A stretch of 60,193 bases of DNA from a virus. Its lineage: Duplodnaviria > Caudoviricetes. The position numbers and the translations under genes are program-made. The notes beneath the pieces are model-generated. The model searched no databases. It saw only the letters and a list, made by a program, of their open reading frames with translations, and was not told where the DNA came from. Shown piece after piece: positions 37,109-58,607 of the stretch. The stretch spans positions 1 to 60,193 of the IMG/VR virus record IMGVR_UViG_3300033148_003082. One strand, 5' to 3'. Numbering within the stretch: position 1 is the stretch's first letter; every line of letters begins with the position of its first letter.

Positions 37109-37402
37109 TCACGGCGATATGTTAATGTCTGTTTTTTCCTGTGGGTTTTTCAATGCTTCCAGCTCTTTGAGCAAAAGTTCATTGGCAAAGGTTTCCTGAA
37201 CGAGCTGCTCTTTCAGTCTTTCGTTTTCTGCTACTAGGCTTCCTATATCCTCTAGCATCCTGCCCGATGACTCAAGGCAGTACTGATTCTGCTCTTCAAT
37301 CACTTTGATGCGGACTTCGAGTTTGCCAACTAGCTCAATATAAGCATCTTCCATATCAGACATTTCTTGCTCATATTTGTTTTCTATATCTTGCAGGTTC
37401 AT
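37109..37402 (-). CDS. Coiled-coil hypothetical protein
   Basis: GGAG RBS; heptad pattern. Confidence 0.55.
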   Translation of the reverse strand: MNLQDIENKYEQEMSDMEDAYIELVGKLEVRIKVIEEQNQYCLESSGRMLEDIGSLVAENERLKEQLVQETFANELLLKELEALKNPQEKTDINISP

Positions 37403-37887
37403 TGTTCACTCCTTAGCCAGTCAGGAAAAAGCTTTGGCTTCAATCCTTCTCCTTGGCAATCCAAAACATATCTTTCGTATTCATCCCACTTACGCAGGGC
37501 AATCTCGTTAGCGTATTTTTCAAAGTCTGGACGCATAGTCATTCCGTTGTAATGTGCTTGTGATATTATTCGCTCAAACTCATCTTTCCCGTCAAGGGAG
37601 CTCGGTTTTACCGGCAGTCCACAAAAACACGCTTCTCCTGGGGCTAGTGGGGAGTTGGGGCAATAAAATTGTACCTCCGTATACTTAGCAATCTTGTCTA
37701 ACGCTATGGATACAGTGAGCATGTTGTCCTGCAAGCGTGTATTTTCAGCCTCAAGTGTATCTATTGTATCCCGTAACTTAATGTTCTCTGTAATTTTGTC
37801 GTGTGTTACGTGTTCAATAGTTGCAAGTTGCTCTTTAAGTTCTATGACAAGAAGCTCACTTATCGTCATTGATGGATGCGGTTTCAT
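37399..37887 (-). CDS. Hypothetical protein
   Basis: GGAGG RBS at the junction motif; coupled stop/start. Confidence 0.55.
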   Translation of the reverse strand: MKPHPSMTISELLVIELKEQLATIEHVTHDKITENIKLRDTIDTLEAENTRLQDNMLTVSIALDKIAKYTEVQFYCPNSPLAPGEACFCGLPVKPSSLDGKDEFERIISQAHYNGMTMRPDFEKYANEIALRKWDEYERYVLDCQGEGLKPKLFPDWLRSEQ

Positions 37888-38336
37888 CGTTCCTCCTTGT
37901 CTAGCCTGTCGATAAGCAAGCAAGCTGGCATCATATGAGCATTTTCTTCATTGTCTTTGCTTATAAACTCCTCAATCACTCGTTTGGTAATCTCTTCGTC
38001 TGTTTCCGGCTTCCACTCAGTTTTTACCAACGTATCTAAAAAGTCTGGAAATATTACAAATTGTTTTCTGTGGTTATCGTATTCTTTTGTTACCGCCCAA
38101 ACCATATTAGCTTCTTGTTCTGTAATGCCGTCCACCGCCAATCTTGGCCCTTCTTCACTAACAAGGGAAAGAGAATCAAGATAATTCTTGAACCATGAAT
38201 TTCTGTGCCAGCCGTCTATCGTTATAAATGACAAATACCTTTGAAAAGCTCTATATAGTACTGCTCTCGCTTTTTGACTAATGAAGGCTTTGTCATTCTC
38301 GCTTATTTCTTTTTCCCAATATTCTTCCCATTTCAT
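37884..38336 (-). CDS. Hypothetical protein with ETDEEITKRVIE module
   Basis: RBS; module shared with 58188..58607. Confidence 0.55.
   Translation of the reverse strand: MKWEEYWEKEISENDKAFISQKARAVLYRAFQRYLSFITIDGWHRNSWFKNYLDSLSLVSEEGPRLAVDGITEQEANMVWAVTKEYDNHRKQFVIFPDFLDTLVKTEWKPETDEEITKRVIEEFISKDNEENAHMMPACLLIDRLDKEER
37971..38006. repeat. 36-bp dispersed repeat (copy at 58269-58304; weaker copy near 41800-41835)
   Basis: CTCAATCACTCG(T/C)TTGGTAATCTCTTC(G/A)TC(T/G)GTTTC, 3 mismatches. Confidence 0.8.
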
Positions 38337-38533
38337 CGTTCACTCCTTTGGTCTAGCCACTCTAGCCTCTCATTACCCCTTGAGCATAAGTGAAAACATT
38401 CCTTCTTGCCTCTACTATTTATTATTTCCACAAATACCCAATATTTAGGAAGTCGCTCTTTTTGAAGCAGTTCATGGTTCGCTATCATTCCGCATCCGTC
38501 ACAAGTAAATATCTCTCTGTGCGCAATACTCAT
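38333..38533 (-). CDS. Small Zn-finger-like protein
   Basis: TCDGCG...HLCS; GGAGG RBS. Confidence 0.5.
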   Translation of the reverse strand: MSIAHREIFTCDGCGMIANHELLQKERLPKYWVFVEIINSRGKKECFHLCSRGNERLEWLDQRSER

Positions 38534-38702
38534 TTATCCTCCTGGTAAAGCGATCCCGCAACCCATCCACCAAAAGCAGGGAGAAAGAAGGCAAGAAACA
38601 CATTCAATATATCTATTGTCCATCCGTCAAAATACAAGATGGCTGTTCCCGTTATGACGCCAATGTAAAAGGTTAATAAAATTAAAGCAAGCATGTATCT
38701 TT

Positions 38703-38924
38703 TCATTTGTTCTCCTTGTTTATTTTTTCCATGAAATCAAGTATCCCCGCATGAATGCCACACATTACGTCCTTGCAAATTTCTCCATCTTTTTCAATGT
38801 ACCAACGCATCCCCTGTTCTTCAAGCTCTTGGCAATCATCGCTAAGTTCTTCTATCGTTTCACCCCATGCTTTTGGGGCATAAAATATACCGCAATTGTA
38901 ACTAGCCATTAGTTTGTAAGTCAC
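38703..38924 (-). CDS. Hypothetical protein
   Basis: GGAG RBS; coupled to neighbour. Confidence 0.45.
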   Translation of the reverse strand: MTYKLMASYNCGIFYAPKAWGETIEELSDDCQELEEQGMRWYIEKDGEICKDVMCGIHAGILDFMEKINKENK

Positions 38925-39238
38925 TGTATTCTCCTTACGTAGCGTATTTTGTTCTGTCTTGCTTTTTTTAATATCGCAAACCGAGAACGTCCTAACAAAC
39001 TGGGTGACTTAGTGCCGTAATAGGGATACTCTTCTTCAAGCGCTTTGTATTCCCACAATTCCCATTCAAGCCCGTTCCTTTCGGGAATGTGTTTCTTTCT
39101 AGGTACGTAATTAATGCTGTGTTTTCCCGCTTGAGCAATGATTGCTAAAGGACTGTGATGCGACAAGGGTGGGATCCTGCACCCGTAATCAGGATATTTA
39201 TTTTTTAGTATGTTTATCTCGTTCGTTGTCCAGTTCAT
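38921..39238 (-). CDS. Protein with two Myb/SANT-like repeats
   Basis: WTTNEINILKNKYPDYG and WELWEYKALEEEYPYYG repeats. Confidence 0.55.
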   Translation of the reverse strand: MNWTTNEINILKNKYPDYGCRIPPLSHHSPLAIIAQAGKHSINYVPRKKHIPERNGLEWELWEYKALEEEYPYYGTKSPSLLGRSRFAILKKARQNKIRYVRRIQ

Positions 39239-39641
39239 AAGTCTCCTGTTTCTCAAGTAACTTTGGCAGCCAAGCAGGCGCATATCTTCTCGGCTCAGCC
39301 AATTTCCCGATAATAATAATCTTTTGTTCTTTTGCCAACGATGCCAACATATTTACGATTGTTGATCCGTGGGGAATATTAAACTCTGTTGAGATTTCTC
39401 TTGTCGTTGGCGGTCTGTAATTTTCTAAGAAATAACTCGATATAAATTCTGCGACTTTATCATAATCGTGTTTCCGATAATCAGAACAGGTCCGAGATTT
39501 GTGACTTGGGAATTGGCTCAATATCAGACATACAGCAGAAGGAGAAAGACCGCGACTAGCAGCAATGTCAGCCATGGAAAGATTGGAGTTGTGATAGGTA
39601 TCGAATATTTCTTGATTTCTTTCTTCTTTAGATTTATTCAT
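39198..39641 (-). CDS. HTH plus LexA-type DNA-binding domain protein (no peptidase domain)
   Basis: SMADIAASRGLSPSAV HTH, then FISSYFLENYRPPTTREI...STIV..L..L. Confidence 0.65.
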   Translation of the reverse strand: MNKSKEERNQEIFDTYHNSNLSMADIAASRGLSPSAVCLILSQFPSHKSRTCSDYRKHDYDKVAEFISSYFLENYRPPTTREISTEFNIPHGSTIVNMLASLAKEQKIIIIGKLAEPRRYAPAWLPKLLEKQETYELDNERDKHTKK

Positions 39642-40026
39642 CAAAATCTCCAAAAAGTTGCTGGACAGGAATGGGATTATTTTCGCAGTCGCACGATTTC
39701 ATAACAAATGTCTTTCCATCCGTTAAAACGATAGGCTTTAATCCGCATCTGCCACAAGCGGGCAAATTGCTTTCTTGTTTGTAATCCTCGCTGGTGTTAT
39801 TTAGAAAAGTGTGCATGAGATTTAATAAGCTTTCATCCTCTACGTGTTTTAACAATTCGCCCACGACTTGCCGGCCCAAAGCAATCATTGAATTTGCGCG
39901 CAGTATATCTTCCTGGTTAGGAGACAAGGGTGATCCATGCCTTAGCCAGGTTTGATAATGTTTTTGGCACAATCCTCTAGCGTAATGTTTGTGATCGCAA
40001 AACCATAACTTGCATTTCTTTTTCAT
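39634..40026 (-). CDS. Zn-binding hypothetical protein
   Basis: C...C...YARGLCQKHY...RHG motif and a C-terminal CxxC. Confidence 0.5.
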   Translation of the reverse strand: MKKKCKLWFCDHKHYARGLCQKHYQTWLRHGSPLSPNQEDILRANSMIALGRQVVGELLKHVEDESLLNLMHTFLNNTSEDYKQESNLPACGRCGLKPIVLTDGKTFVMKSCDCENNPIPVQQLFGDFDE

Positions 40027-40240
40027 AATCGTTTTTCCTTTCTTGCTTGTTGTTTCTTTTCCAAATAAACCATAAAGTAATTGCAAGCACACTGCTTGGA
40101 ATCTTTGCCAAAAGTTGTTCCCAGTCTTATTTGTCTTTCGTGACAAGACAGAGTGTGTCCGTTAATAAATTCTTGTTTCCCGATTTTTTTATAAACGTTT
40201 TTGTCAGCCACTGGTTTCTCCTTTTCTAAGCATTTGCAAA

Positions 40241-41386
40241 CTAGCCCTTGATTACACCTAGTGGGGTTAATTTTACTTTTATCTTTACTAAATCCTTCTG
40301 GTTTTCCATTACTTCGTCAATGTCTTTATAAGCACCAGGAGCTTCGTCAAGATCGCCAGCATTTCTCAAGCCGTGAATAATTCCTTTCATTTTCCCTTGC
40401 TCTTGTTCAAGGTTTAATTCTCGTTTGGCTTGCTTTCTTCCCATTTTGCGACCTGCACCATGAGAACAAGACATAAAACTTTCTGGATTTCCTAATCCTT
40501 CAACAATATAACTACTTGTTCCCATTGAGCCGGGGATTATTCCCTCAAGTCCTACCGTTGCCTTCGTTGCCCCTTTGCGATGAATCAGTACATTGTTTTT
40601 GTAGTGATGCTCAAAGGCTGCATAGTTGTGATGAATATTTACGGTATGCGCATCTTCTGCCCCCGTTATCTTGTTAATAATCGCCAATGATTTACTCATC
40701 ATTAGTGACCGGCTTGCTTCTGCAAAACGGAGACAATAATTCATAGCTTCGTAATATTCTTTTCCTTCAGGTGTTTCCATTGGAAGAAAAGACAAGTCCT
40801 TGTTTGGAATATCTGACAGCCATCGCTCACATAACTTCTTTGCTTTATCGTGATATTCTTTTGCTGTTTTGAAACCAAAGTTTCTTGATCCAGAATGAAT
40901 CATTAACCAAATATGCCCATCATCACCCTTCTGAATCTCAATGAAGTGATTGCCTCCCCCCAATGTGCCAAGCTGTTTCTTTGCTGATTGTAGTTCCTGT
41001 TGGATTATCTGAATATCAGGAGCATAATCAAATCCATCCCAGTCTTGCGGTTCTTTATTGTGATTAAATCCTACTGGAATAGATGTCCTAATTTGCCCCA
41101 TAATTTCTTTTATAGTTTCTGTGTCAATTTCATTTAGAGACAATTTAGACGCTATCATTCCGCACCCAATGTCCACGCCAACAGCGTTAGGTACTATTAC
41201 TCCCTGCGTTGCCATTACTCCGCCAATAGGCATGCCATATCCCTGATGACTGTCTGGCATTATAGCAATCCACTTCCAAGCAAAAGAAAGGTTTGCCAAA
41301 TCCTTTGCCTGATTTAATGCCCCCTCTTCTATATCATCAAGCCATAACTTAATCGGTAGCCGTTCTGTTGAAATTACTTTATTCAT
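40241..41386 (-). CDS. rtcB: RtcB RNA ligase
   Basis: MPDSHQGYG.PIGG, VGVDIGCG, GTLGGGNHFIE, HSGSR, HNY, HRKGA, SHGAGR and DEAPGAYK motifs. Confidence 0.97.
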   Translation of the reverse strand: MNKVISTERLPIKLWLDDIEEGALNQAKDLANLSFAWKWIAIMPDSHQGYGMPIGGVMATQGVIVPNAVGVDIGCGMIASKLSLNEIDTETIKEIMGQIRTSIPVGFNHNKEPQDWDGFDYAPDIQIIQQELQSAKKQLGTLGGGNHFIEIQKGDDGHIWLMIHSGSRNFGFKTAKEYHDKAKKLCERWLSDIPNKDLSFLPMETPEGKEYYEAMNYCLRFAEASRSLMMSKSLAIINKITGAEDAHTVNIHHNYAAFEHHYKNNVLIHRKGATKATVGLEGIIPGSMGTSSYIVEGLGNPESFMSCSHGAGRKMGRKQAKRELNLEQEQGKMKGIIHGLRNAGDLDEAPGAYKDIDEVMENQKDLVKIKVKLTPLGVIKG

Positions 41387-41399
41387 TGGCTTTCTCCTT

Positions 41400-41687
41400 T
41401 TATTTTGGAACGTCTACGTTTTTCCAGTATAGTACTTTAACAGGTAGCGGGAACCCTGGTTCCGAACACCAGCTTGCGCCATTCCAAAGCACTCCATATA
41501 TTTTATCTTTCCCATCTTGATCTCCGCGGAATGAATAAAAATCGGCATATACCAAGTCAACTACAGTGTTGACTTCTGGAAGTTCGTCTTTTACATCTAT
41601 CCAGCTTTTCTCTTTCTTTGTTATATATCCAAAAAACCAACCAGTCATAAACATGACAAGCAATGCGATTATTGTACCTGCGGTCAT
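41400..41687 (-). CDS. Membrane-anchored DUF551-like protein
   Basis: N-terminal TM segment; WIDVKDELPE...VLYW. Confidence 0.5.
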   Translation of the reverse strand: MTAGTIIALLVMFMTGWFFGYITKKEKSWIDVKDELPEVNTVVDLVYADFYSFRGDQDGKDKIYGVLWNGASWCSEPGFPLPVKVLYWKNVDVPK

Positions 41688-41791
41688 TTGTCACTCCTTC
41701 GGTCTAGCCAGTCTTTTATCTTTTTGAGATGTGCCATACATGCACCCAATTCCCAAACATCATAATTCTTCGGGTCGCCTGTTTCTTTCCA

Positions 41792-42073
41792 TCACTGTTC
41801 TATCGTCCGGATGGTAATCTTTTCGTCGGTTTCTGGTTTGTCAAACTCGACATGATTACATTTATTACAAATCATTGCACTTTGTAGCCGTCCCCATCTA
41901 ACGGCATTAGTTCTTGACATTCTACCGTTGCACATTGGGCAACCGTTCTCACCAACAAAGGAATTGAGGATTTCTTCAAGAGCGTGGAAGTCAATAAAGT
42001 TTTGTCCGATCTCGTTGCCGTACAGGTGTTTCTTGCAATCCTTAAGTATCGCATCTGCTGTCTCTTGTTTCAT
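41792..42073 (-). CDS. Zn-ribbon hypothetical protein
   Basis: CPMC...CNKC; GGAGG RBS. Confidence 0.5.
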   Translation of the reverse strand: MKQETADAILKDCKKHLYGNEIGQNFIDFHALEEILNSFVGENGCPMCNGRMSRTNAVRWGRLQSAMICNKCNHVEFDKPETDEKITIRTIEQ

Positions 42074-42333
42074 TTGTCCTCCACTTTGTTAAAAATTCCA
42101 AATTCCATCAAAAACTCAATATGACTTTTCAAGCTCGTTGCTTCAAATTGAATATCTTTATCCCAATCAACAAGTTTATTATCAGCGAATCTCAGAAAGC
42201 AATTCAAACATATTTCATCATCGCGGTATTTTTCGGGAATTGCTTGCTCCCAAATATCCGTTGGCACACAAAAACCAATAGGCATTTCATTGTGACACAG
42301 GGAGCATCTTGAACGTGTTGGTATCTTATTCAT
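42070..42333 (-). CDS. Zn-binding hypothetical protein
   Basis: CSLC...CLNC; GGAGG RBS. Confidence 0.5.
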   Translation of the reverse strand: MNKIPTRSRCSLCHNEMPIGFCVPTDIWEQAIPEKYRDDEICLNCFLRFADNKLVDWDKDIQFEATSLKSHIEFLMEFGIFNKVEDK

Positions 42334-42614
42334 TTGTCCTCCTGGTTTACTGTTACCTTGATATTGCCCATAACTGGATGAACCTGTCCGGCGATTGTGA
42401 CCTTCCTGTCATTCATTCTCTCAAGCTGTTCAGCAATCTTGTTCACGCTTCTTGTTAGTATACGGATACTGGCATCCACTGATTTACCGGCAGTGTAGGT
42501 TTCTTCAGCAATAGCAATCAGGGCGTGGGCGATAACTTGGTCTTGTATATTGTCGGGAATCCCGAAGCCTACCATCCTGCCAGCCTTGTTTTTTGCTTTT
42601 TCCAAGTGGTTCAT
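42330..42614 (-). CDS. Hypothetical protein
   Basis: GGAG RBS; AHALIAIAE motif. Confidence 0.5.
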   Translation of the reverse strand: MNHLEKAKNKAGRMVGFGIPDNIQDQVIAHALIAIAEETYTAGKSVDASIRILTRSVNKIAEQLERMNDRKVTIAGQVHPVMGNIKVTVNQEDK

Positions 42615-43013
42615 TTGTCACTCCTTATGAAGTAAAATATATAGTAAACGCAACAAATCCAGTTGCTATCGCGAAGAAGAACGGTAGCAGCCTATATAGT
42701 ATGAAACTAAGCACATTCTTTGTGCTCATAAATGTAGCAAAGAACAATAAAAAGATACAGGACATACAATTTATCCACATAATCACGTTCAGGTTTACAT
42801 TCATTTGTCACTCCTTTTGATGAGCGTCTAAAATTTCAGATAACCTTTCTTCAAATAGGTTTTCGTAAAACCAATATGGGTCGGCATGTTCCATCATTTC
42901 GTTTACTAGCGCATTGATCCATTCTTTTAATTCGTCCATTTATCACTCCTTGATTTGTTAATTATTTTCAAAAATTTACCAGTAAATCGAATTATTGGCA
43001 AATCTACAGTCAG

Positions 43014-43886
43014 CTATGACTCGATTTGTTCCTTGTACCATTCGGGAAAGCCTCTAGTTAATCCCTTGATAATTTTCTTTGATTCTTTTTTGTATAGCAT
43101 TTCCTTAATGTCCTCCCCGTGTTCCCGTTTAATGTCAATGTTCAACTCTTTCATTAGTTTGCCAATATCTTTTGGCTCGTGTTCAAGTTCTCCAGCTTCT
43201 GCTAAATGTTGTACCGCTTTCTGCCAAATCGCTTCACGGTTAAAATGCCCGACAATATATTCAATGGTGCCGGGATTTCTTTGTTTCCAATCTTTGCCGT
43301 GTTTCTCTTGAAAATCAGGATTTACGTACTTTGCCATCATTACTTTATCTCTAATATACTTGTCATAATTTTTGATGACAACTCCCTCAATTAATATACC
43401 GCCAAGAATAGAAGGTATTTGCAAAAGATTTTCTAACAAGTCAATCGTTACGCTTTTGCCTTCCCCTTCCCATAAGACGGGAGCACAATCACAACCAATT
43501 GTTTGCGCCTCGAATTGCACGTTTGTGGGGGAAAGATAATTTGTGTTTCCTGTATCAATGTCAAAAAGCACTATATAACCCGCGGGGGTGCGGTGATAAT
43601 GAAGTGTATTGTGCTTTGGTTTTGATAAAAATTCTCCCCTATATGTCCAATCCTCTTTTAGATATTTCTGAACAGATTTTAAGTGATCGACCGCAAGCTG
43701 AAAAATACCTGGGCTGTCTAGATCCAATTGCTGATTACGGGACCGAATAGATAACTCTCCGCTATATACTCCGAAAGAAATTTGGGACCCGTCAATTTTT
43801 TCGTGAATGACAACATTACCATCCAGCACATCTTGTACCAATCTGTGCCCAAACACTTTAGGACTTGAATAAGAACGAATGTTCAT
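43014..43886 (-). CDS. ATP-dependent RNA ligase (Rnl2-like)
   Basis: Motif I EKIDGS, YRGEF, LFDI, EGVVIK, AKYV. Confidence 0.82.
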   Translation of the reverse strand: MNIRSYSSPKVFGHRLVQDVLDGNVVIHEKIDGSQISFGVYSGELSIRSRNQQLDLDSPGIFQLAVDHLKSVQKYLKEDWTYRGEFLSKPKHNTLHYHRTPAGYIVLFDIDTGNTNYLSPTNVQFEAQTIGCDCAPVLWEGEGKSVTIDLLENLLQIPSILGGILIEGVVIKNYDKYIRDKVMMAKYVNPDFQEKHGKDWKQRNPGTIEYIVGHFNREAIWQKAVQHLAEAGELEHEPKDIGKLMKELNIDIKREHGEDIKEMLYKKESKKIIKGLTRGFPEWYKEQIES

Positions 43887-43897
43887 TTAATTTCCTT

Positions 43898-44242
43898 TTA
43901 CGTAATCCTAAAAGTTATATAGCTTTTAGTTTGGTCAACTATTTGTCTATATCTGGCAGAGACCATCCATTCGCCTTCGTGTTCAAAAGCATCTGCTGCT
44001 TTGTGTAATGCCCCCCACTCTCCCTCATTGAGTGATTTTGTACTAAGCCCTTCGATTTCTGTTTCAACTTGCCGAAACCATGTATATAAGATTAGGCGTC
44101 TCATACTGTCCGATCCGGCTAGTTTGTTTAGGTGTCCAATCAGGGCACCCTTTGCTCCTCGCGAAAGAGGATCCCCGTCCCATTTTGCCGCATCTCTTCG
44201 CAACCTGGTTTTTATTCTTTCAATTGTTTCTATATTTGTCAT
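43898..44242 (-). CDS. Hypothetical protein
   Basis: ORF with RBS in operon. Confidence 0.5.
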   Translation of the reverse strand: MTNIETIERIKTRLRRDAAKWDGDPLSRGAKGALIGHLNKLAGSDSMRRLILYTWFRQVETEIEGLSTKSLNEGEWGALHKAADAFEHEGEWMVSARYRQIVDQTKSYITFRIT

Positions 44243-45737
44243 TTTACATAATCCTTATGAATTTAAAAATAGGATAGAAGAAAATCGCTAAAAAAAACAG
44301 AGCTAGGGGTAAGATACAGATTAGGCTAACAAGTATTTCTATCATATAAGTCTCCTTTACTTTTTCCAAGTATACCACAAATTAGATAATACACAAGACA
44401 TAACATCAAATATTTAGGGGTATCCTCCCAATGGTGGTTGCAAATATTACATTTGTATTGTCAACGATTGCCTCTAACGTTGCGGGTGATTTTTAGGGGT
44501 ATCGGAAAAATCGCGTTATTTCTAGGGGTATCGGTATTGAGGGGTTCCGTTAAAGGTTGCTGGACACTTTTCGGGAATGGCAAAACGTTGCGACCAAGAT
44601 CCCTGATTTTAAGTTTTGCGCATGAATACCATCTCATGTTTTTTGTCATAGTTCACCCTTTTTTCCCAGGCGCGTTAAATCGGTCCTTGCCTCTGACGAG
44701 GACCAAGTTAGATCGATTTGTAAAGAAGGTCAATCCAATCCATAGCGGCTTGGGTTGAAAGTTCCTTCGTCGCTGGTAGGCCTTCGGTTATTGCTTTATC
44801 GTAGGTGTCGAATAAGGTATCCCCGTTTTTGTTCTTGACCTTCGATCTCCAGCAGTCACCTTCAACAGGGGTTGTGACAACAAGGAATTTTTTGTAAGGT
44901 TTCTGGTTGTGCATAATTACCTCCAATATAATTTGAACAAATTTTTACAGGGTATCGGTTTTTTTAGTGAAGATTATTTTTTACTGCTGCACCTCCTAGA
45001 AGTGCTTAAAGGTTGCTGGACTTTTCTACATCTTCTTGTGTCCAACTGCCTACGTATTGAGTAAGTGTAAACAGTGGTGGTGTATCTGGTACCTCTTGCG
45101 TGTCATACTCATTGCCGTTTTTGTCGGTTGCTCGGAACCACCAACCGGCCCGGTCCTTGTATTTAAACCCATGCCATACATCACCATTCTTAAATCTACC
45201 ATCTGGTGTCATTTGTTTTGTCTCCATTTGATAACCTCCTGGTATGTAAAGTTAATGGTTACTTTTTTACAAGGGCACGCCTGAATTGACGGCCCAGCAG
45301 GTCGTAAGCTTTCCTCACTTGTTCTATCTGCCCTATGGTTAGCAGCTCTTCGTTAACGTAACCAATGCTTCCATCCTGATACAGGGCCGGGTATTGACTG
45401 CACCCTTTGCTATCGGTAACTTTGACGTATAGGTGAGTTCCTGAATATAATATATCTACATTTTCACTGATGCGTATTTCCTGACTTTCCATCTGACAAC
45501 CTCCTGGTGATATGATTAATGCGGTACGCATAGGGTAAACGGACCGCAGTTATGATAACTATAATATGGATCTGAAAGACATAAACTAACTATCCCAGGT
45601 TTACACCAACTGAATGGATAGATGGATAACAATAAGCCTTTCCATAATTTGACTGTAAAATAATAATCACTCATTTGATAACCTTTACCCGTGTATAATC
45701 CCCACGGGCAGGGAATGGACTAATTGACAGGATGATC

Positions 45738-46223
45738 TTATTCTTTTTCGGTATCCGTGTGGGTTGGCAAGTGCATCGGCATAATAATGGCCATAGCATC
45801 CGATCCGGGACAGGTTACCTTAACTGGTCTATTTGCAGCAGTAAACGATAATACAACCGCTTTATTGCCGGGCATGGTTTTTAAATCAGCTAATAACTTT
45901 TTATCAATCGCGATTTTAAACACTGGCTCATCTGTGGGGATAATTATCTTGTAATCAGGGAATGTACCAGGGACCTCTTCAATTTCCTGGATCTGCGGCT
46001 TGACCGTAATAGTACTAACCGGTTTAATAACCTTATCGTCATAATCATATAAGGCGGCCGGAGTCTCAATACTGTGTATTCTAAATCCATCGCATCCAAT
46101 AGTTTTTTTGCTATCAATAAATAACCCATTGAGTATAGGCCGTGCCTGATCCTTGCTAGCTGCTATCTGACACCATTTGACCTCTTTACACTCTTCTTTA
46201 GATTCTAATTTGAAAGTATTCAT
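45738..46223 (-). CDS. Truncated DNA polymerase III beta-clamp-like protein
   Basis: ASKDQARPILNG, CDGFRIH, GTFPDYKIIIP and IIMPM motifs of clamp domains II-III; 161 aa. Confidence 0.7.
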   Translation of the reverse strand: MNTFKLESKEECKEVKWCQIAASKDQARPILNGLFIDSKKTIGCDGFRIHSIETPAALYDYDDKVIKPVSTITVKPQIQEIEEVPGTFPDYKIIIPTDEPVFKIAIDKKLLADLKTMPGNKAVVLSFTAANRPVKVTCPGSDAMAIIMPMHLPTHTDTEKE

Positions 46224-46255
46224 CGTATAATCTCCTTTAGAATATTTTTATTTAT

Positions 46256-46648
46256 TTATATTACGATAGAATCATATACTAACTTAGGCACGCCTATGCC
46301 TCGTTCGTCAAACCAGAGGGTATAATAAGTGACAGGGTTCTTAAGTTCCCTATACTCCAATTGGATCCGCTTACTGGTATGGGTTTTTACATAAGCGGAT
46401 TTATTAGTCAATCCAGCACTCTCTATATGATCCTGGAGGGTTGATACTGATCCGTTGCTCCAGCGGTATTGTTTATTCAGCTGCTTTCTTAATCTACCCT
46501 TGTTTAAATCAGAAAATTCAGCGGTGTCATATATAACCATAATAGTCTCCTCCGCGTGTAACATGCGCGGCCCGTATATAAGACTCAATTCACCATCCGT
46601 ATATTTTAGGCTTATCTGCCGTGATAGTGAAAATAAAGCCTTGACCAT
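46256..46648 (-). CDS. Hypothetical early protein
   Basis: ORF within the early cluster. Confidence 0.4.
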   Translation of the reverse strand: MVKALFSLSRQISLKYTDGELSLIYGPRMLHAEETIMVIYDTAEFSDLNKGRLRKQLNKQYRWSNGSVSTLQDHIESAGLTNKSAYVKTHTSKRIQLEYRELKNPVTYYTLWFDERGIGVPKLVYDSIVI

Positions 46649-46832
46649 CCTCTTTAACCGTAAAGGGATAACTGCCGCTATATCCCCAGTAGTCTCTTAA
46701 CTTTTCACACTCAGCCCTATCACATAACTTCCCTTTGCGACACTCTTCAAATTCAGCTTTGAGAGTATTTATTTTAGGTCCAGACTCTATCATGTAAACC
46801 TCCGATTATTTATAATGATTATTGGATCTGCC

Positions 46833-47162
46833 TTAGTCCTCTTCCTCCTCCCTCAGCTCTTCCAGGATATCATCTAATTCACCGTGAAGGTGATTGCTAA
46901 CAGCCTCATATATGTTGGCTGCAATGATATTAACGGCTGTAGGTTCACCGTCAAAGGCCGGGCCAAGTTCCGGAACCTCAGTCGCTAAGTCAAGATTGTT
47001 AGCGCCATATTGGGCAAGGTCATAATAGTAAACCGGAACGCTTCCATCTGCTACTTCTGCAATGTAGTCGTATGGGTCCTGAGTATCAAGCAAATCATAC
47101 TCAGTTTTGAGGGTATCTCTAGCTTCTTCTAACAAATCACACATTCTATAGTTGGTGTTCAT
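46833..47162 (-). CDS. ocr: Ocr-like anti-restriction DNA mimic
   Basis: YDYIAEVADGSVPVYYYDL and IIAANIYEAV align with T7 Ocr HDAIHMAADNAVPHYYADI and ILQARIYEQL (recalled); 109 aa with acidic tail EELREEEED. Confidence 0.8.
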   Translation of the reverse strand: MNTNYRMCDLLEEARDTLKTEYDLLDTQDPYDYIAEVADGSVPVYYYDLAQYGANNLDLATEVPELGPAFDGEPTAVNIIAANIYEAVSNHLHGELDDILEELREEEED

Positions 47163-48363
47163 TTTATTACCTCCGATATTCTAATAATCAATCTTTAGAT
47201 TTAATACCAGCTATCGATCTCACGCATTGCAGCCGATACGGCATAATTCGGGTGATGATAATTACCAATCAATGACAACTTCAAGGTTGGTGATTTCAGC
47301 GCCATTGAGTGCTCCTTCAACAACTTTTTCAAGGAGCGCATCAAGCCAAAGATTCTCGATCTTTTCTGAGAGTATGCCGAGTTCAACATCTGTTAAGGGG
47401 TCGATTGTACTTAGCCGTATTTTGTACTCCGCCATCAACATGTTATGCCTCCTGTATTATGATTTATTGTTTTCCTGAATCTTTAGCTTCAAAAACTCAG
47501 CATGTCTAGTAACCTTCTCAGCGTCTTTATCTTTTCCACTCTCAATATATAACTCAGCTATCCGTTCCACTACCTTATGGGTAGCTTTCAGCCTCCGATC
47601 CTCTACTACATGTGACATTGCCAATTTACTCATTTATTCAGTCTCCAATACTACACTAACAGAATATTTAATCTTCGGCATTCCTGCATAGCCTTTTTTT
47701 CACTGTCATACGTATTGATTGTTTCACCCGTAAAGTTAGTTCGAATGCCAGTGTGAGGGTTGATATCTCCGCGTCCATCACTGTGTAATGTAGTAAGGGA
47801 TAAGACATATTGCTCGTTTTCTTTATATACTCCGTAAAATTGCTTATTCATCATTTGCCTCCTATCTAATCTTGATTATGCCTTCATTATACAAAATTCA
47901 GATAGTAATAACACATAACAAATGTCACATTTTTATATGACTTTCCTCACCCATTATATTAACCCTATTAATACCCTGTAATACTCGATCTGATAACCCG
48001 CGTCCTGGATTGTTTCAGGGAACCCAGCTGTATACCCTCCCATTAGTAACATTGCCAGGCGTCTGAGTTTACAGGCTATCTGTAATTGCTGCAATTCTAT
48101 TATTTGCTTGATCTTGGATATTTGACGGGCTAGATATTCCCTCATATTGATATATTCCCTTATCTTGATTATTTGTTCAGGTGTCATTTGCTTAGTCTCC
48201 TTGTAACGGGCTTGTTTATATGTGTTTGCTTGAATTATTTTTCAAGCCGTGCTATATAGTCAAGTAAGATTAAATTTATATGGCTATTGACCCCTCGTCC
48301 TCGCGCTCTTTTTTTTGTTCTACTTTTTCAATCCCGGCCGGGGGGGGCGCCGGGCTTGGTACT

Positions 48364-48406
48364 AGAACGTTTGTTCTAATAAACCGGGCAGTAGAACGCT
48401 TGTTCT
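48364..48406. promoter_or_regulatory. Two tandem LexA (SOS) boxes
   Basis: AGAACGTTTGTTCT (48364) and AGAACGCTTGTTCT (48393) both match AGAAC-N4-GTTCT. Confidence 0.65.
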
Positions 48407-49114
48407 GCCTATGGTTGCGATAAATGTAATTATCACAAGCATTAATTTTCACAATGTCCTTTAGAATCGCCTATTGTTGCGATAATGTTATACTTCGTTG
48501 GACGGATTGTAACCATTTGACACTGATTCAAGGGTATTTGCGATAATATTTGTAATAGTGCTGCAATAATCCCGGATCTGCCTGGATAGTGTCGTTTATC
48601 AAGTATTACCCGTGCCTGCCCTGGTCGACCGCGACCGATCATAATAATAGACTTGCCTTGATCTTGATTTGTAGCACTCATGTTATCCCCTGCCCTACGC
48701 TAGACTGGCCCTGGTCAATCCTACCAACCAGATGACTAATAACCCAACTAATAGATAGGCTCCCAGCTGTGCGCTCTCTAGGCTTGGGACCTGTAATCTA
48801 GGGGCTAGCTCAGGTAGTGATAGTGCTGCGATAAACTCGTATATCTGACCCATTGTAACCTCCGATCTAGTCTGTTCTACCTGTAATGTATCATACAATT
48901 GTATTATGTCAAGCGGTTAGTAAGGGCAAATTCTAACAGATTTGTTAGGTGATACGCGGCTGATCCCAGCCTCCAGGGAGCTGATACCGGCCGGCTGCCC
49001 CCGTTTCGTGTAGGAAAATTTTTAGTATGTAACATCGCCTCCCATAAATTTTCCAAAATTCGTCAAAATTCACTCTTGCATTATGGTTATTTTGTAGTAC
49101 AATGAAGTCAGAAC

Positions 49115-49363
49115 ATGGAAAGGAGACCAATGAAAGAAAGCGTTTTATCAGAACTTCTCAGGATTGAGCATGAGTTTGACGTTAAGGTACTTTATGCTTG
49201 CGAGGCAGGAAGTAGAGCCTGGGGATTTCCTTCCATTGATAGTGATTTAGATGTTAGATTTCTTTACATAAATAGACCTGAGTGGTATTTGTCGATTGTT
49301 CAAGAACGAGACGTGATAGAAATGCCAATTTGTCATAACCTGGATATAAATTGGTGGGATTGA
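49115..49363 (+). pseudogene. Truncated RlaP/YcgL-like pol-beta nucleotidyltransferase
   Basis: LYACEAGSRAWGFPS.DSD.DVRF...RDVIE; stops at LDINWWD, about a third of the usual length. Confidence 0.75.
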
Positions 49364-51042
49364 TGAAAGTTATGACTGATTTAGTGAACGCTAACGCTTT
49401 ACACATTCCGCTCAAAGACAAGTCGGTTCAAATGTGTGTAACCAGCCCTCCTTATTGGGGGCTTCGTGATTATGGAATTGACAATCAAATTGGACTTGAG
49501 CAAACGCCGGAAGAATATGTCGAGAACATGGTTGCCGTCTTTCGTGAAGTGTGGCGGGTTCTTAGGGATGATGGCACTCTGTGGTTGAACTTAGGGGATA
49601 GTTATGGCGGTGGACACGGTGGTAACAAAACCAATTCCGTAAAACAAAGAAGCAATCAGGGAACGCAAACAGCCCCTCGTCACGGGAATATGCCAAAGCA
49701 ACTAATGGGCATACCCTGGAGAGTAGCGTTTGCATTACAGGCTGACGGCTGGTGTTTAAGAAATGAAATAATATGGCAAAAAGCGAACCCTATGCCGGAA
49801 AGCGTGAAGGATAGATGCACGAAAGCACATGAGCAAATTTTTATACTTTGCAAGTCATCTTGGGTTGGAGATATGCCTCCCAGGAGATACAAGAAAAGCA
49901 ATGCGGAATGGCTTGCCCTTTTGATTGAAACCGAGGGCAACGTAGCAATCAGAAGGTATATGCACAACAGAACAACTCCCCAACATGCTCCACAAGTTGC
50001 AGTAGCCAATTCTGACATCACTATTTTGGAATATGCAAGAAACATTACAGGAATGGGGCATATTCTGGAACGAGAAGGGACAAACAAGCCAGTATATTAT
50101 CTTCAATGGACAACAAAAGAGGCGGCCTTGGTTCTTTGGGAGTGCTTGCCGTATATGTTTGGAAAGAGGAAGCAGGCGGAATGTGCTATATGGCTTTCTC
50201 TAAGAAGAAGTAACAAAAACAAAGGCAAGAGAAGCGACATTTTTTACAAGAAAGGCAGACATTATTACTTAACAGACAAAGAAATAAAACTACGAGATGG
50301 AATTTGGCAAGCGGTAAAAGACTTAAACCAGAGCCGCCCAGCTGATCTTAGTTGGCTTACACCAATAAAAGAAGGGCGATGGAAGCCAAATAAATATTAT
50401 TATGACATGGATGCAATAAGAGAACCACATGCTCTAGCTTCATTGCCGAGGGCTTTGCGTGGATTGAGCGAAGATAACAAATGGAATAAAGTGGCACCCG
50501 GGTCCACAGCGCATACAATGAGCAAACCCAGAAAGAACAGAAGAAAAGAATGGGAACAAGAACACGGCGGGGGAGGTTCAGGATTTGATGGACATAGTGG
50601 TTATCGTGATGAAAATGGAAGATTGTTAATTAATCCAGCGGGCAGAAACAAACGCACCGTCTGGACAATCACAACAAAATCGTACAAGGGGGCACACTTC
50701 GCCACGTTTCCGCCCGAACTTCCTGAAATTTGCATCAAGGCCGGAAGCGCAGAAGGGGATATTATATTAGATCCATTCGTAGGATCAGGAACAACTTGCG
50801 TGGTAGCTAGAGATTTAGGCCGTCATTCAGTTGGATTAGATTTAAGTTTTGATTATCTTATGAACAATGCCAAGAAACGGCTAGGGTTGACACAAATGGA
50901 AGAATGGATAAACGGGGGCAAAGAAGTAGAAACAAAGATGGACGGCTTACCAATGTTTGGTGACTTGCCGTCCACAAAACATCATAAGAATATGCAAAGA
51001 AAAGATCCACATAGTTTTCACAAGGCGAGGCTAACGAAATGA
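49351..51042 (+). CDS. N4/N6 DNA methyltransferase (beta class) with in-frame LAGLIDADG insertion
   Basis: VTSPPYW, HFATFP and ILDPFVGSGTT motifs; insert WLALLIETEG...LPYMFGKRKQA. Confidence 0.9.
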   Translation: MVGLMKVMTDLVNANALHIPLKDKSVQMCVTSPPYWGLRDYGIDNQIGLEQTPEEYVENMVAVFREVWRVLRDDGTLWLNLGDSYGGGHGGNKTNSVKQRSNQGTQTAPRHGNMPKQLMGIPWRVAFALQADGWCLRNEIIWQKANPMPESVKDRCTKAHEQIFILCKSSWVGDMPPRRYKKSNAEWLALLIETEGNVAIRRYMHNRTTPQHAPQVAVANSDITILEYARNITGMGHILEREGTNKPVYYLQWTTKEAALVLWECLPYMFGKRKQAECAIWLSLRRSNKNKGKRSDIFYKKGRHYYLTDKEIKLRDGIWQAVKDLNQSRPADLSWLTPIKEGRWKPNKYYYDMDAIREPHALASLPRALRGLSEDNKWNKVAPGSTAHTMSKPRKNRRKEWEQEHGGGGSGFDGHSGYRDENGRLLINPAGRNKRTVWTITTKSYKGAHFATFPPELPEICIKAGSAEGDIILDPFVGSGTTCVVARDLGRHSVGLDLSFDYLMNNAKKRLGLTQMEEWINGGKEVETKMDGLPMFGDLPSTKHHKNMQRKDPHSFHKARLTK

Positions 51043-54749: not shown

Positions 54750-54823
54750 GTGGCCGTAGCATAATCGGTAGTGCGCCGCGCTGTGATCGCGGACAAGTGA
54801 AGGTTCGATCCCTTCCGGTCACT
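54750..54823 (+). tRNA. tRNA-His(GTG)
   Basis: GTGGCCG/CGGTCAC acceptor; CCGCG-CTGTGAT-CGCGG anticodon arm; GAAGG-TTCGATC-CCTTC T-arm. Confidence 0.88.
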
Positions 54824-55122: not shown

Positions 55123-55284
55123 TTACTTCATTATAAAATCAATTTTTTTGTAGATCCTAGGACATTTAGCGTCTTTCCCCGTCTTTTCACAAAAACTTTT
55201 AAGAACTTTGGGCTGCTTTCCCAAAGGAAACTCTCTTTCCAGCGTTTTCTCGCAATGGGGACATTTGTAAACATAAATAGCCAT
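55123..55284 (-). CDS. FmdB-like zinc-ribbon protein (53 aa, below the ORF-track cutoff)
   Basis: MAIYVYKCPHCEK...C...CPRIY. Confidence 0.55.
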   Translation of the reverse strand: MAIYVYKCPHCEKTLEREFPLGKQPKVLKSFCEKTGKDAKCPRIYKKIDFIMK

Positions 55285-55359: not shown

Positions 55360-56637
55360 CTATTTTGGAAACTCTCTTACCATCAAATCTTCTGGAATTG
55401 CTTCTCGCTTTGACTTTGTGTTTCCTGACATTTGTTTCATAAAGAACGGCACTCCACATGTCCGACATTGATCTCTGATTGATCTTGCCCAATCCGGATG
55501 CATGTGTCTGTTGCCTGCTCCACTTTCGCCACCCGATATACACCACGAAATTCCTACCATCGATCCCCCCGTGCTATCTTGGATACTGCTTGAAACGTGA
55601 TTCCGTAATCCGGTGCTATTGTTCTTAATAACTCCTTTTTCTTGTTGCGCCTTCGGCGTATTTCCATTACCTCTTGCTCGGTCAATTTTGCCATAGAGTT
55701 CTTTACCCCCCTCTGGTTCGCACAATGACCTACTTTGAGAATTCTCGCCGCATGTTGTGCGTTCTGTGCTGGAGTTACTATCTCTAAATTTATTAATCGA
55801 TTGTCTGCCTTTTTTCCGTTTTTGTGATTCATCACCAATCCGTCCGGGATCTTTCCCTGAAAATGCAACCATACTAGACGGTGAGCTAAAGCATTGTGGC
55901 GTTTCCCCTCTATCATTGCTCTGACTTGTAGGTAACCACTTGGAAGACAATGTTCTGCCCGAACCTTCTTGCATTTGTTTGTTCGGACGCATTGATTCCA
56001 ACGATCCCATCCTCTTTTCCCTGTTCTCCATACGCGACCCTGGTCGTCTACTTCCATCTCGCCTCGAAGAACCGCTATGTAAACTTTCTCTTCTGCCTTT
56101 TTTATATTTGTCATTGATTGGATTATAGCACAAATACTGACGAATATCAATCCGCTCCAACAATGGCTCGCAGCTTGCAAAATAGATAGTTGCTGGAATT
56201 TCCAACAATAGCGGAATTCTCAAGTCAGCCATTTCCTGATTCTCTGCTGTCACGCCTAACCAAACATTAGAATATTCTTCTCCCCAATCTTCCGGCAAGC
56301 ATTGTTTTATTCTCTCAGGGCGTTTGGTCAAAATCTGGAATATCAGATGTGGGCATTTTTTAATTATTTCCCAAGCTTCGCCCCTCCATTCATCAGCTTC
56401 CTCAATAAAGAAATCGCTCCAAGAACAAACAAAAACTTTTGCCGGTTCTTTCCAATGCAATGGCTTATTGAATGTGGGAGGTTTTGATCGAACAACAACA
56501 GACGGATCTTGCCCGTATCTCTTTTTATCCCGGTACATATAACAATTTTGGCACCCGGCAGAAACCTTTTTGCACCCTTGCCATGGATTCCAAGTTGATG
56601 TGGTCCAGCTTATATTCGTGTGTTTTCCCATTTGCAT
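55360..56637 (-). CDS. DUF5131 (phage Gp37/Gp68) family protein with large internal insertion
   Basis: TWNPWQGCKKVSAGCQNCY, SWSDFF, LTKRPE, WLGVTAENQ, SCEPLL...GGESG, PFFMKQ. Confidence 0.88.
   Translation of the reverse strand: MQMGKHTNISWTTSTWNPWQGCKKVSAGCQNCYMYRDKKRYGQDPSVVVRSKPPTFNKPLHWKEPAKVFVCSWSDFFIEEADEWRGEAWEIIKKCPHLIFQILTKRPERIKQCLPEDWGEEYSNVWLGVTAENQEMADLRIPLLLEIPATIYFASCEPLLERIDIRQYLCYNPINDKYKKGRRESLHSGSSRRDGSRRPGSRMENREKRMGSLESMRPNKQMQEGSGRTLSSKWLPTSQSNDRGETPQCFSSPSSMVAFSGKDPGRIGDESQKRKKGRQSINKFRDSNSSTERTTCGENSQSRSLCEPEGGKELYGKIDRARGNGNTPKAQQEKGVIKNNSTGLRNHVSSSIQDSTGGSMVGISWCISGGESGAGNRHMHPDWARSIRDQCRTCGVPFFMKQMSGNTKSKREAIPEDLMVREFPK
55554..56114 (-). CDS. HNH homing endonuclease nested out of frame in DUF5131
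   Basis: GYLQV, AHRLVW, MNHKNGKKADNRLINLE.VT..QN..HA, plus a C-terminal HTH. Confidence 0.85.
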   Translation of the reverse strand: MTNIKKAEEKVYIAVLRGEMEVDDQGRVWRTGKRGWDRWNQCVRTNKCKKVRAEHCLPSGYLQVRAMIEGKRHNALAHRLVWLHFQGKIPDGLVMNHKNGKKADNRLINLEIVTPAQNAQHAARILKVGHCANQRGVKNSMAKLTEQEVMEIRRRRNKKKELLRTIAPDYGITFQAVSKIARGDRW

Positions 56638-56731
56638 ATCTTCCTAAATCATAAATTTAAAAAACGTCCCAGGCTCGGAGGGACCCAGGGCGTATCGGAT
56701 AAATTATACACCATCTCCTCCGTTTATGGGA

Positions 56732-57364
56732 TCAAGAACTTTTTCTGTCATCAAGTTTATGTTTTCTTTCTTGTACTATTTCTCTTTTGAAAATCTCATA
56801 TTGATTCGCAAGGTCTATATCTCTTGAATGATCGCGATTTGGGACCAAATGGCTTTTGTCAAACTTCTCCATCAATCTTCTAACTTTGCCATGAGATTGC
56901 GCCTTTGCTACACTTAGAATATCAATGAGATGTTTTTCAATTATTTGATGATAATAATTGTCAAATCGGAAAGCATGAACTTCGAAAGGAGAAGCAAAAA
57001 ATTTTATATCGGGTTGATTGTTTTCTCCATAGCGGAATATTATGTCCATGTAGTTTTTGGTGTAATAGACATCACCTAGAAGAACAATAGTTTTATCGTT
57101 CCATAATTCTTTTGTAGAAAGAATTGTTTCGCATGTAAAACTTCTATTCTCTGGAACAAAAGTTTTTACACCAATATTTTGAACAGCTATAATAATTTCT
57201 TCATTATGGGTAGCGACGTATATATCAAAACAATTCCTTTCCTGGCATTGCCTAATCATGCGAGTGAGAAAATTCTCACCATCACAAATGGGAAGTAATT
57301 GCTTTATAGTGCCCTCAAATCTGCGACACTCCCCGGCGGCAAGAATAATAACTGTTTTATTCAT
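56732..57364 (-). CDS. Sugar/choline-phosphate-type nucleotidyltransferase
   Basis: IILAAGECRRF...KQLL, LLGDVY and DID motifs. Confidence 0.78.
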   Translation of the reverse strand: MNKTVIILAAGECRRFEGTIKQLLPICDGENFLTRMIRQCQERNCFDIYVATHNEEIIIAVQNIGVKTFVPENRSFTCETILSTKELWNDKTIVLLGDVYYTKNYMDIIFRYGENNQPDIKFFASPFEVHAFRFDNYYHQIIEKHLIDILSVAKAQSHGKVRRLMEKFDKSHLVPNRDHSRDIDLANQYEIFKREIVQERKHKLDDRKSS

Positions 57365-57448
57365 GATAATATAATCGCGATTATTATAATTATGATTATA
57401 CTAATCCATGGAATACATCCGCAGCAACAAAGACAACATCCTTCGTCG

Positions 57449-57631
57449 TTATTCATTTCCCTTTTCCAGTTCGTCGACTTTTTCATTTACTAGATCGTCA
57501 ACTACTTCAATCATAGATGGATTATCAATTTCCGGATACTCGCCCTTAATCATTGGAAGCAGCACATATTTTAATTTGTCGCGAGTTGATTCGTACATTC
57601 TAAAGGTTGCATATTTTTTATTCTCTGTCAT
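57449..57631 (-). CDS. Small RHH-like protein
   Basis: YATFRMYESTRDKL pattern; RBS. Confidence 0.45.
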   Translation of the reverse strand: MTENKKYATFRMYESTRDKLKYVLLPMIKGEYPEIDNPSMIEVVDDLVNEKVDELEKGNE

Positions 57632-57633
57632 AG

Positions 57634-57819
57634 TTACTCCTGTTGGGTTAGCCGGTCATCAATTTCTTTTATCATAGCTTGACAGTACTCTTCTCCACTG
57701 TCTACACTGAAACTAACACACACTCCCCCCAAGGGTTTCCACCCCATCTCAATGAACTCTTTAACCACCTGCTCTAACATTCTGGGGTTTTCCTCTGTTA
57801 TTATTTCGTATTTCATCAT
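57634..57819 (-). CDS. DUF1737-like protein
   Basis: LEQVVKEFIEMGWKPLGGV...YCQAMIK. Confidence 0.7.
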   Translation of the reverse strand: MMKYEIITEENPRMLEQVVKEFIEMGWKPLGGVCVSFSVDSGEEYCQAMIKEIDDRLTQQE

Positions 57820-57926
57820 TCCTCCTTGTCTAGCCAAACCGATCTGCTAAAAACATAATCAGTGCGGCTATCACAAACAATATGATTAGCCCCGCAATAT
57901 ATTCATCACTCATCATTCACTATCCT

Positions 57927-58187
57927 TTAGTATACCCCTTCTATTCCCTCGTCAATCTCAAATCTTTTTTCTAAACCACACCTTGAGCAACGTCCGTGAT
58001 AATTGATTTGAAACCTACCCTTCCGTATCCCTATTTCATAGTCTTCTCTGAAAGTAGGCACTAACGGAGTCAATTTAATCAATGCTAAATATTCTTGTTC
58101 TGACATGTTGCCATAGGCTTTATTTCTTTCCTCGTCTCTCGTCTTTTTGCATCGGGGGCAACTAGTCCAGTTATCTGCGCTCATCAT
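57927..58187 (-). CDS. Zn-binding phage protein
   Basis: MSADNW..CPRC...TFREDYEI...CSRC. Confidence 0.6.
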   Translation of the reverse strand: MMSADNWTSCPRCKKTRDEERNKAYGNMSEQEYLALIKLTPLVPTFREDYEIGIRKGRFQINYHGRCSRCGLEKRFEIDEGIEGVY

Positions 58188-58607
58188 TCACTCCTGTTGG
58201 TTTAGCCAATCAAGAACATATTTGAAATGCCAATACTTTTTACTTCGTCTATTTTCTTCCGCTCCTTTCTCAATCACTCGCTTGGTAATCTCTTCATCGG
58301 TTTCTTTTTTGAACCGCATTGCTTTCTTTGAACCAAGTTGTTCTCTCACAAACGGGAGTACCGTATCGTCATAGAACTTATGAGGTTCTTCGTTATCAAA
58401 CATGGCCAGTATTCTTCTTTCAATCTCGTCAGCCAGGTTGCCATACTCTCCCACACTAGCAAGGCAATTATCTATTTCCGCAAACCTATCTGATATTTCA
58501 TCCATAATTCCATAAACAAGCCTGTGATTTAAGTATCTTTCTATAATATCTTTTATTGCTTCTTTTTTCTCTGCCTGTTCTCTACTTAGTTTTGTTTCAT
58601 CCACCAC
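58188..58607 (-). CDS. Hypothetical protein with ETDEEITKRVIE module
   Basis: GGAGG RBS; shared repeat. Confidence 0.55.
   Translation of the reverse strand: MVDETKLSREQAEKKEAIKDIIERYLNHRLVYGIMDEISDRFAEIDNCLASVGEYGNLADEIERRILAMFDNEEPHKFYDDTVLPFVREQLGSKKAMRFKKETDEEITKRVIEKGAEENRRSKKYWHFKYVLDWLNQQE

Follow-up and report, generated by a model that had tools for sequence, protein, structure and literature searches.

Cluster K mycobacteriophages carry start-associated sequences (SAS; Pope et al., 2011, PMC3203893; surveyed in 188 genomes, PMC12699233), to which no function has yet been assigned. In lambdoid phages short boundary or "linker" sequences have been proposed to mediate homologous exchange of modules (PMC3029335), and in T4-type phages promoter-early stem-loop (PeSL) cassettes were described (Arbiol et al., 2010, PMC2839356; see also PMC4122927). 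Here we analyze a stop-start linker of 20-30 bases that joins seven or eight small accessory genes in a tailed phage, IMG/VR virus record IMGVR_UViG_3300033148_003082. The window is this complete record, 60,193 bp with 40% G+C. The linker is confirmed as a real feature of the genome. It is a pattern of a single genome, any role beyond that of a ribosome site is putative, and it resembles the known start-associated and linker sequences of other phages, to which it would add a low-GC, module-derived variant.

In behaviour the SAS are the closest described system. Both repeats are short and asymmetric and carry AGGAG a few bases before the start codon, mostly ATG. Both occur in one orientation and only at non-structural genes of different families; both contain conserved bases that are unable to pair with 16S rRNA, and the upstream stop codon is sometimes located inside the repeat. 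The placement that characterizes SAS (directly upstream of starts, one orientation, non-structural genes only) was also found for the linker. The two sequences are unrelated, however, and the host types differ. The SAS consensus GGGATAGGAGCCC with at most two mismatches had one match (55210-55222, minus strand) compared to 0.67 expected, at no linker. Unlike SAS, the linker has an extra conserved part upstream of the Shine-Dalgarno sequence, located in the last codons of the upstream gene at a variable distance. It also has no ESAS-like inverted repeat, and its seven or eight copies are found in a single genome.

With respect to a recombination seam, the lambdoid boundary sequences and the PeSL cassettes are the closest. 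Like the boundary sequences, the linker is a short shared sequence exactly at the boundaries of unrelated genes, where an exchange would keep both genes intact and expressed; the evidence there is comparison between phages, whereas here all copies are in one genome. A short sequence shared between otherwise unrelated flanking genes, the feature by which boundary or linker sequences are recognized, was found here. Boundary sequences are said to go back to original papers by Susskind and Botstein from 1978 and Clark et al. from 2001. PeSL cassettes are likewise repeated regulatory sequences between small non-essential genes in variable regions, acting in expression and as recombination seams at which genes are gained and lost. 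They are intergenic and consist of a sigma-70-type promoter with a terminator stem-loop behind it, however, while the linker overlaps coding sequence and has no promoter (A-D examined) or hairpin (all eight copies). Integron cassettes end in attC sites, which are imperfect inverted repeats, and are associated with an integron integrase. The linkers have no inverted repeat and the scan of the proteins revealed no integrase family, and this candidate was rejected. Other linker-type junctions, apart from SAS, PeSL and boundary sequences, were sought in the literature with no relevant result.

Linker copies at the junctions of small accessory genes

A sequence-only reading of the window had reported eight strings at stop/start junctions. 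All eight were recovered at the coordinates given, on the minus strand, every string having the G of an ATG as its last base (Table 1). Anchored on GGCT, the consensus is GAY-NGG-CTA-[G/A]AC, 0-6 nucleotides (nt), AGGAG[T/G]RA, 3-5 nt and ATG. The distance from the first core G to the ATG is 13-23 nt. Site H has GACAGGCT but not CTA and is therefore treated as a marginal, weaker relative.

Table 1. Copies of the linker and of the C-terminal module in the window.
Feature	Positions	Strand	Sequence
Linker A	37400..37422	minus	GACTGGCTA-AGGAGTGA-ACA-ATG
Linker B	37885..37910	minus	GACAGGCTAGAC-AAGGAGGAA-CG-ATG
Linker C	38334..38371	minus	tandem 9-nt core pair (AGGCTAGAG TGGCTAGAC), then CAAAGGAGTGAACG-ATG
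Linker D	41685..41713	minus	GACTGGCTAGACCGAAGGAGTGACAA-ATG, before 41400-41687
Linker E	57629..57657	minus	GACCGGCTAACCCAACAGGAGTAACT-ATG
Linker F	57814..57838	minus	TTTGGCTAGAC-AAGGAGGAA-TG-ATG
Linker G	58182..58211	minus	GATTGGCTAAACCAACAGGAGTGAATG-ATG
Marginal member H	25337..25356	minus	GACAGGCTGGAGGACAA-ATG
Module copy in protein B	37887..38012	minus	KPETDEEITKRVIE...IDRLDKEER
Module copy in protein G	58191..58316	minus	KKETDEEITKRVIE...LDWLNQQE
Third module copy	41687..41839	minus	...KPETDEKITIRTIEQ-stop-WKETG...KKIKDWLDRRSDK; in-frame TGA at 41792-41794

The pattern GGCTAR-N(0-12)-GGAG had 9 matches compared to 1.48 expected, and none of 100 shuffles reached 9. When the start codon was included (GGCTAR-N(0-9)-GGAG-N(4-10)-ATG), 8 matches were found with 0.19 expected, a number reached in 0/100 shuffles. 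Seven of them are the reported gene starts, and the eighth (5558-5586, plus strand) is at no gene start. A copy of CTGGCTAAGG at 39949 is located inside an HNH-like protein, also with no start. Our gene list holds 110 genes (37 plus, 73 minus) and was made with a heuristic of our own and three manual corrections. GA..GGCT[AG] was found within 36 nt upstream of 7/73 minus-strand starts and 0/37 plus-strand starts; the frequency is thus not equal at core-gene ribosome sites, of which the motif is not a feature. GGCTR at positions -30 to -16 of starts was found 12 times (2.57 expected; Poisson P 1.7e-5), whereas GGCTA as a word showed no overall enrichment, the excess being purely positional. The idea that the core is a protected rare word was rejected, as no depletion of CTAG was found in the genome.

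The motif junctions were clustered, with C-B-A at 38.4-37.4 kb and G-F-E at 58.2-57.6 kb, giving four adjacent pairs (permutation P 0.0017). In the two minus-strand arrays (38.4-37.1 kb and 58.2-57.6 kb) single genes are bracketed by direct linker copies. The linkers outside the arrays are found in two isolated places.

The copies fall into three two-member subtypes in which the spacer is included in the match: B/F with 24/25 nt identical, C/D with 19/20 over TGGCTAGACCRAAGGAGTGA and E/G with 17/18 over GGCTAAMCCAACAGGAGT. Among 5886 pairs of start regions B/F had the best score (22), C/D was joint second (18) and E/G joint seventh (15), the 99.9th percentile being 15.1. In its 3' half the linker has a strong Shine-Dalgarno sequence of Firmicute type with normal spacing to the ATG, and the ribosome sites of the genome in general are of the strong AAGGAGG, Firmicute-type kind. 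At three starts (42614, 42804, and 42939) the 3' half (GGAGTGA..ATG) occurs without the core. One half can thus be separated from the other, and the 3' half is no more than the favoured ribosome site of the phage. On the other strand, GGGCTAGGAGG was observed 6 nt before the ATG of the gene (58720-59307) that opens the plus-strand packaging operon. At this intergenic position (58704-58722) a core-like GGCTAG is fused to the Shine-Dalgarno sequence as in linker A, which may be chance.

Upstream reading frames end inside the linker or next to it. We name each upstream protein after its linker. Protein A (37399-37887) ends in PDWLRSEQ, its TGA overlapping the ATG of 37109-37402; protein B (37884-38336) ends in IDRLDKEER with an ATGA overlap; protein C (38333-38533) ends in RLEWLDQRSER; protein E (57634-57816, DUF1737) ends in IDDRLTQQE; and protein G (58188-58604) ends in LDWLNQQE. 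At linker D the in-frame reading is an unannotated continuation beyond a TGA. Linker F is read in another frame, where the TAG of GGCTAG is the stop codon of a 28-residue hydrophobic open reading frame (ORF; 57830-57916). At site H the upstream ORF 25355-25483 stops at a TGA just before the motif, which is untranslated. The claim that unrelated proteins end in DWL, DRL or EWL was therefore correct for five annotated proteins (A, B, C, E, and G, ending in D/E-W/R-L) but not for the junctions at 41685, 57814, and 25337.

Nucleotide conservation of the core and the C-terminal module

In six of the eight copies (the five annotated proteins and the unannotated frame D) the core is read in the same frame, as D/E-W/R-L. 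The Leu codon was CTA in 6/6 of these. CTA accounts for 134 of 1288 Leu codons (10.4%) in 91 genes of the genome when the last 12 codons are excluded, and by our own arithmetic the chance of six CTA codons at this usage is 0.104^6, or about 1e-6. The second core residue is W, R, W, W, R, and W, encoded by TGG, AGG, or CGG, so that NGG is constant while the residue varies. The Asp codon was GAC in 4/5 cases compared to a usage of 35%. The fixed CTA and NGG, with copy F in another frame and copy H untranslated, point to a constraint or a shared origin at the level of DNA or RNA. At synonymous sites it is thus the nucleic acid that is conserved. The shared C-terminal targeting peptide suggested in the sequence-only reading finds no support, given these fixed synonymous positions, the varying residues and the two copies that are out of frame or behind a stop codon. 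No overlapping ORF ending at the core TAG or TAA was found except for the 28-residue ORF at linker F.

Three of the linker copies represent the end of one paralogous C-terminal module, which had been overlooked earlier. This module of about 42 amino acids, ETDEEITKRVIE...LDWL, has the consensus K[PK]ETDE[EK]IT[KI]R[VT]IE ... [IL]D[WR]L[DN] and is present in three phage copies (B, G, and a TGA-interrupted third) that end in the linker core. The first part of the third copy is the end of ORF 41792-42073, and the frame runs through the TGA to linker D. This in-frame TGA could be a nonsense mutation, a sequencing error or a site of read-through; TGA otherwise serves as a stop codon throughout the genome. 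The ETDEEITKRVIE patch of B and G differs by three synonymous changes and no amino-acid change, which argues for selection at the peptide level in this patch, opposite to the pattern of the linker. LDWL in the module is part of a real protein domain, with the linker core as the last codons of the domain.

A profile of the module was compared to 1.84 billion representative proteins and gave five proteins at E <=0.001, two of them being B and G. The foreign protein P0006 (E 1.8e-10) has ...NEEITKRVIEEGRIESKRSKAYWHFKFVLDWLDKESDEVP behind a different N-terminal part. Of the other matches, P0007 is repetitive and probably spurious, and P0008 is weak. The only other homologue of protein G, P0003, is 54% identical over 57% of G; the match stops at ...GSKKA[MV]R and P0003 is without the whole module, which suggests that the module is itself a movable piece.

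The remaining linker copies are found on unrelated genes. In an all-against-all blastp of the flanking proteins only B and G (42 residues, E 3e-4) and B and the protein denoted x (15 residues) were similar. In protein E the Pfam domain DUF1737 ends at ...AMIKE, and the tail IDDRLTQQE is outside the domain. P0005, the closest homologue with 76% identity, can be aligned as far as ...YCQAMIKE; after this it terminates with EADK, and IDDRLTQQE is missing. The similarity between E and P0005 thus ends two codons before GAC-CGG-CTA. This comparison, at protein level, is the sole evidence for a mosaic breakpoint. The tandem duplicate of the 9-nt core in linker C is as unequal exchange would leave it. 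The proposal that the junctions are boundary sequences for moving small genes was accordingly upheld in part and indirectly, by near-identical patches of 17-25 nt that join unrelated genes, by the two arrays and by the break between E and P0005 two codons upstream; no relative was found in which breakpoints could be placed.

RNA partners, relatives and other features of the genome

No RNA fold was shared among the eight junctions, which had neither a common hairpin nor an inverted repeat. A genome-wide duplex scan necessarily ranked the antisense strands of the linkers on top. Apart from these, the best complementary site was in a strong terminator (36855-36895, plus strand), where 9 bp are possible with GGCUAGACC. 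Ten sites with 9 bp were found in the window, four of which are the antisense of motif-like sites, compared to 5.8 expected in shuffles. The terminator was rejected as an antisense partner, since the match is at chance level and start regions without the motif pair as well or better. For the translational control site suggested in the sequence-only reading, neither a structure nor a partner of the 5' half was thus found, and the 3' half is an ordinary strong Shine-Dalgarno sequence followed by ATG. No family of RNA-binding regulators was recognized among the proteins scanned. At linkers A, B, C, and D (range 34000-49500) no promoter or terminator was listed, and a -35-like TTGACA before the core was without a -10 partner, both by eye and in the promoter listing.

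Upstream of the same terminator a promoter-like TTGACA-17-TAGAAT was observed (36789-36817, plus strand). The next 80 nt or so contain two hairpins, of which the second is a 17-bp terminator with a T-run. We regard the region 36789-36903 as a candidate small RNA; its orientation is convergent to the end of the minus-strand array, and it has no match in Rfam.

Searches of a phage collection at the DNA level, in near and distant modes, gave no useful match. With RtcB as anchor four loci were found, each sharing at most one further gene (SSB in L003 and a phosphoesterase in L004), and the motif was absent from the gene strand of all four. With the terminase as anchor we found 26 IMG/VR and 31 metagenome loci, at most 62% identical and of other GC contents. 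These loci had neither accessory genes in common with the phage nor motif arrays, the metagenome loci being judged from the listing. Protein B had no homologue except itself and no locus in IMG/VR. Alignments of E with P0005, of G with P0003 and of the module gave nothing in IMG/VR and nothing, or a spurious match of 14 residues, in GTDB genomes. A tblastn search with P0006 and E against cultured phages gave no match. A 21-mer of the C/D/G subtype had 0 loci in IMG/VR. A 17-mer of B/F had four, in unrelated phages of 39-59% GC, which is about chance level; one of them was junction-like.

The plus strand of the genome carries siphovirus-type tail genes, among them the tape measure gene (5719-8979) and Dit, while the minus strand carries replication and repair genes and many small orphan genes. 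By Pfam and PHROGs the minus-strand products include SbcCD-like proteins, a DnaB-like helicase, an O-like initiator, RtcB, an RNA ligase, an ocr-like protein, two DNA methylases and two GIY-YIG endonucleases. Genes for tRNA-Arg(TCT) and tRNA-His(GTG) are located at 35526-35600 and 54750-54823 on the plus strand. The product of the plus-strand ORF 3-1292, which is 5'-open where the contig starts, is a family-2 glycosyltransferase that has a helix-hairpin-helix tail; the protein has a weak match to a TET-associated glycosyltransferase and may act in DNA modification. A 77-residue ORF at 49130-49363 (plus strand) matches only positions 1-77 of the 249-position RlaP profile (RNA repair pathway) and is directly followed by a methylase with an HNH insert. 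Together with RtcB and the RNA ligase (40241-41386 and 43014-43886, minus strand) it suggests an RNA-repair set in which one gene is possibly truncated or interrupted.

A fragment at 29517-29783 (minus strand) resembles the C-terminus of a DNA methylase (...AGSGTT...EIAKRRIE), has a stop codon inside and probably remains from a former gene; there is a weak resemblance between EIAKRRIE and the ETDEEITKRVIE patch of the module. The repeat TACnnTTGTAnTGTCAAyGATTGCCA occurs in four intergenic copies, at 15719-15761, 28629-28671, 35047-35089, and 44448-44490. It contains the near-palindrome TGTCAATGATTGCCA, probably an operator to which a DNA-binding regulator would bind as a dimer. Two of the copies adjoin gene starts, at 28624 (minus strand) and 35084 (plus strand).

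Possible origin and role of the linker

The reading that we prefer, and which we consider about equally likely to be right or wrong, is that of a private linker of stop codon, ribosome site and start codon that derives from the end of the module, was spread by recombination and acts as a coupled translation start. A DNA-level linker of about 20-30 nt joins small accessory genes in the two arrays and the two isolated places. Since the upstream frame stops within the linker or at its edge, the downstream gene would be translated by coupling and would need no promoter of its own. The 5' half is identical to the last codons (D-W/R-L-D/N) of the 42-residue module, presumably without a function of its own, and the direction would be from module to linker. 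A segment of module end, ribosome site and start codon may have been copied or exchanged by recombination between short patches. Such copying would put the segment before unrelated genes, and unrelated upstream proteins would gain DWL or DRL tails. Where the frame differs, the linker would supply only a stop codon, or nothing.

Several observations weigh against this reading. No related phage was found in the collections searched and no gain, loss or swap at a linker was seen, so that recombination is deduced from a single genome. The break in homology between G and P0003 is about 40 codons upstream, at the module boundary and not at the linker. In P0006, a protein of other origin, LDWLD is conserved as a peptide, and the core in the three module copies may thus be partly kept for the protein. 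The 5' boundary of similarity is the same in 7/8 copies (GA, two bases, GGCT), which a functional element explains equally well. No single-strand annealing recombinase was recognized by Pfam or PHROGs, only SbcCD-like, exonuclease, RusA-like, and SSB proteins. The gene list behind the counts is, as described above, heuristic.

A functional element of this kind would be a site similar to SAS, with the 5' half GAnnGGCTA[G/A]AC being an RNA or DNA element before the Shine-Dalgarno sequence that is read by a phage or host protein or by a small RNA and co-regulates the seven or eight genes. This is possible but rather doubtful. It accounts for the single orientation and the restriction to non-structural minus-strand genes (7/73 and 0/37 starts), for the constant placement 13-23 nt before the ATG, and for a sharp common 5' boundary that is kept whatever the reading frame. 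Such features are also reported for the cluster K sequences (PMC3203893). The distance from core to Shine-Dalgarno sequence varies between 0 and 7 nt, however, the eight folds have no common secondary structure, and neither a complementary site above chance level nor an RNA-binding regulator was found among the candidates scanned. The spacers common to the subtype pairs point to copying rather than selection on the core. An extension that we find unlikely is that the 5' half is a dedicated tag, a low-GC counterpart of start-associated sequences, by which a phage-encoded factor would switch the translation of a small accessory regulon, and that the same tag is the seam for gene swaps. If so, a newly acquired gene would be wired into the regulon on arrival.

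That the D-W/R-L tail is a C-terminal signal for targeting, degradation or interaction, with the similarity of the DNA as a by-product, is quite improbable. The shared frame of 6/8 copies and the conservation of ...YWHFKFVLDWLD in the foreign P0006 are in its favour, yet the DWL of P0006 is not terminal but followed by nine residues, and P0005, the homologue of protein E, does without the tail. W and R are chemically unlike and still share NGG, CTA is used in 6/6 copies against the 10.4% usage, and copies F and H do not encode the tail. The least probable explanation, to which we give hardly any credence, is that there is nothing beyond a ribosome site, the pattern being due to extended base pairing to the 16S rRNA 3' end or to chance and selection by eye. 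The 3' half AAGGAG[G/T]GA is indeed a near full complement of the anti-Shine-Dalgarno sequence, and the starts at 42614, 42804, and 42939 have GGAGTGA without the core. TAGA(C)AAGGAGG of B and F would match, with one bulged base, a Bacillus-type 16S tail. The most conserved bases, GAnnGGC, are nevertheless located 8-16 nt upstream of GGAG, which would be beyond the reach of the 16S rRNA 3' end. Chance is excluded by the shuffle tests, and the 8-mer GGCTAGAC occurs five times in the window, 5/5 on the minus strand and 4/5 at linkers.

If the linker is both a start signal and a seam, it would illustrate a way for phages to gain or swap small accessory genes without loss of their translation. Such genes are often anti-defence or host-takeover genes. 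The old linker model of phage mosaicism would then have a concrete example, in a lineage distant from the mycobacteriophages in which SAS were described. For annotation it matters that unrelated small phage proteins can have a conserved "C-terminal motif" in common as the by-product of a junction shared at the DNA level.

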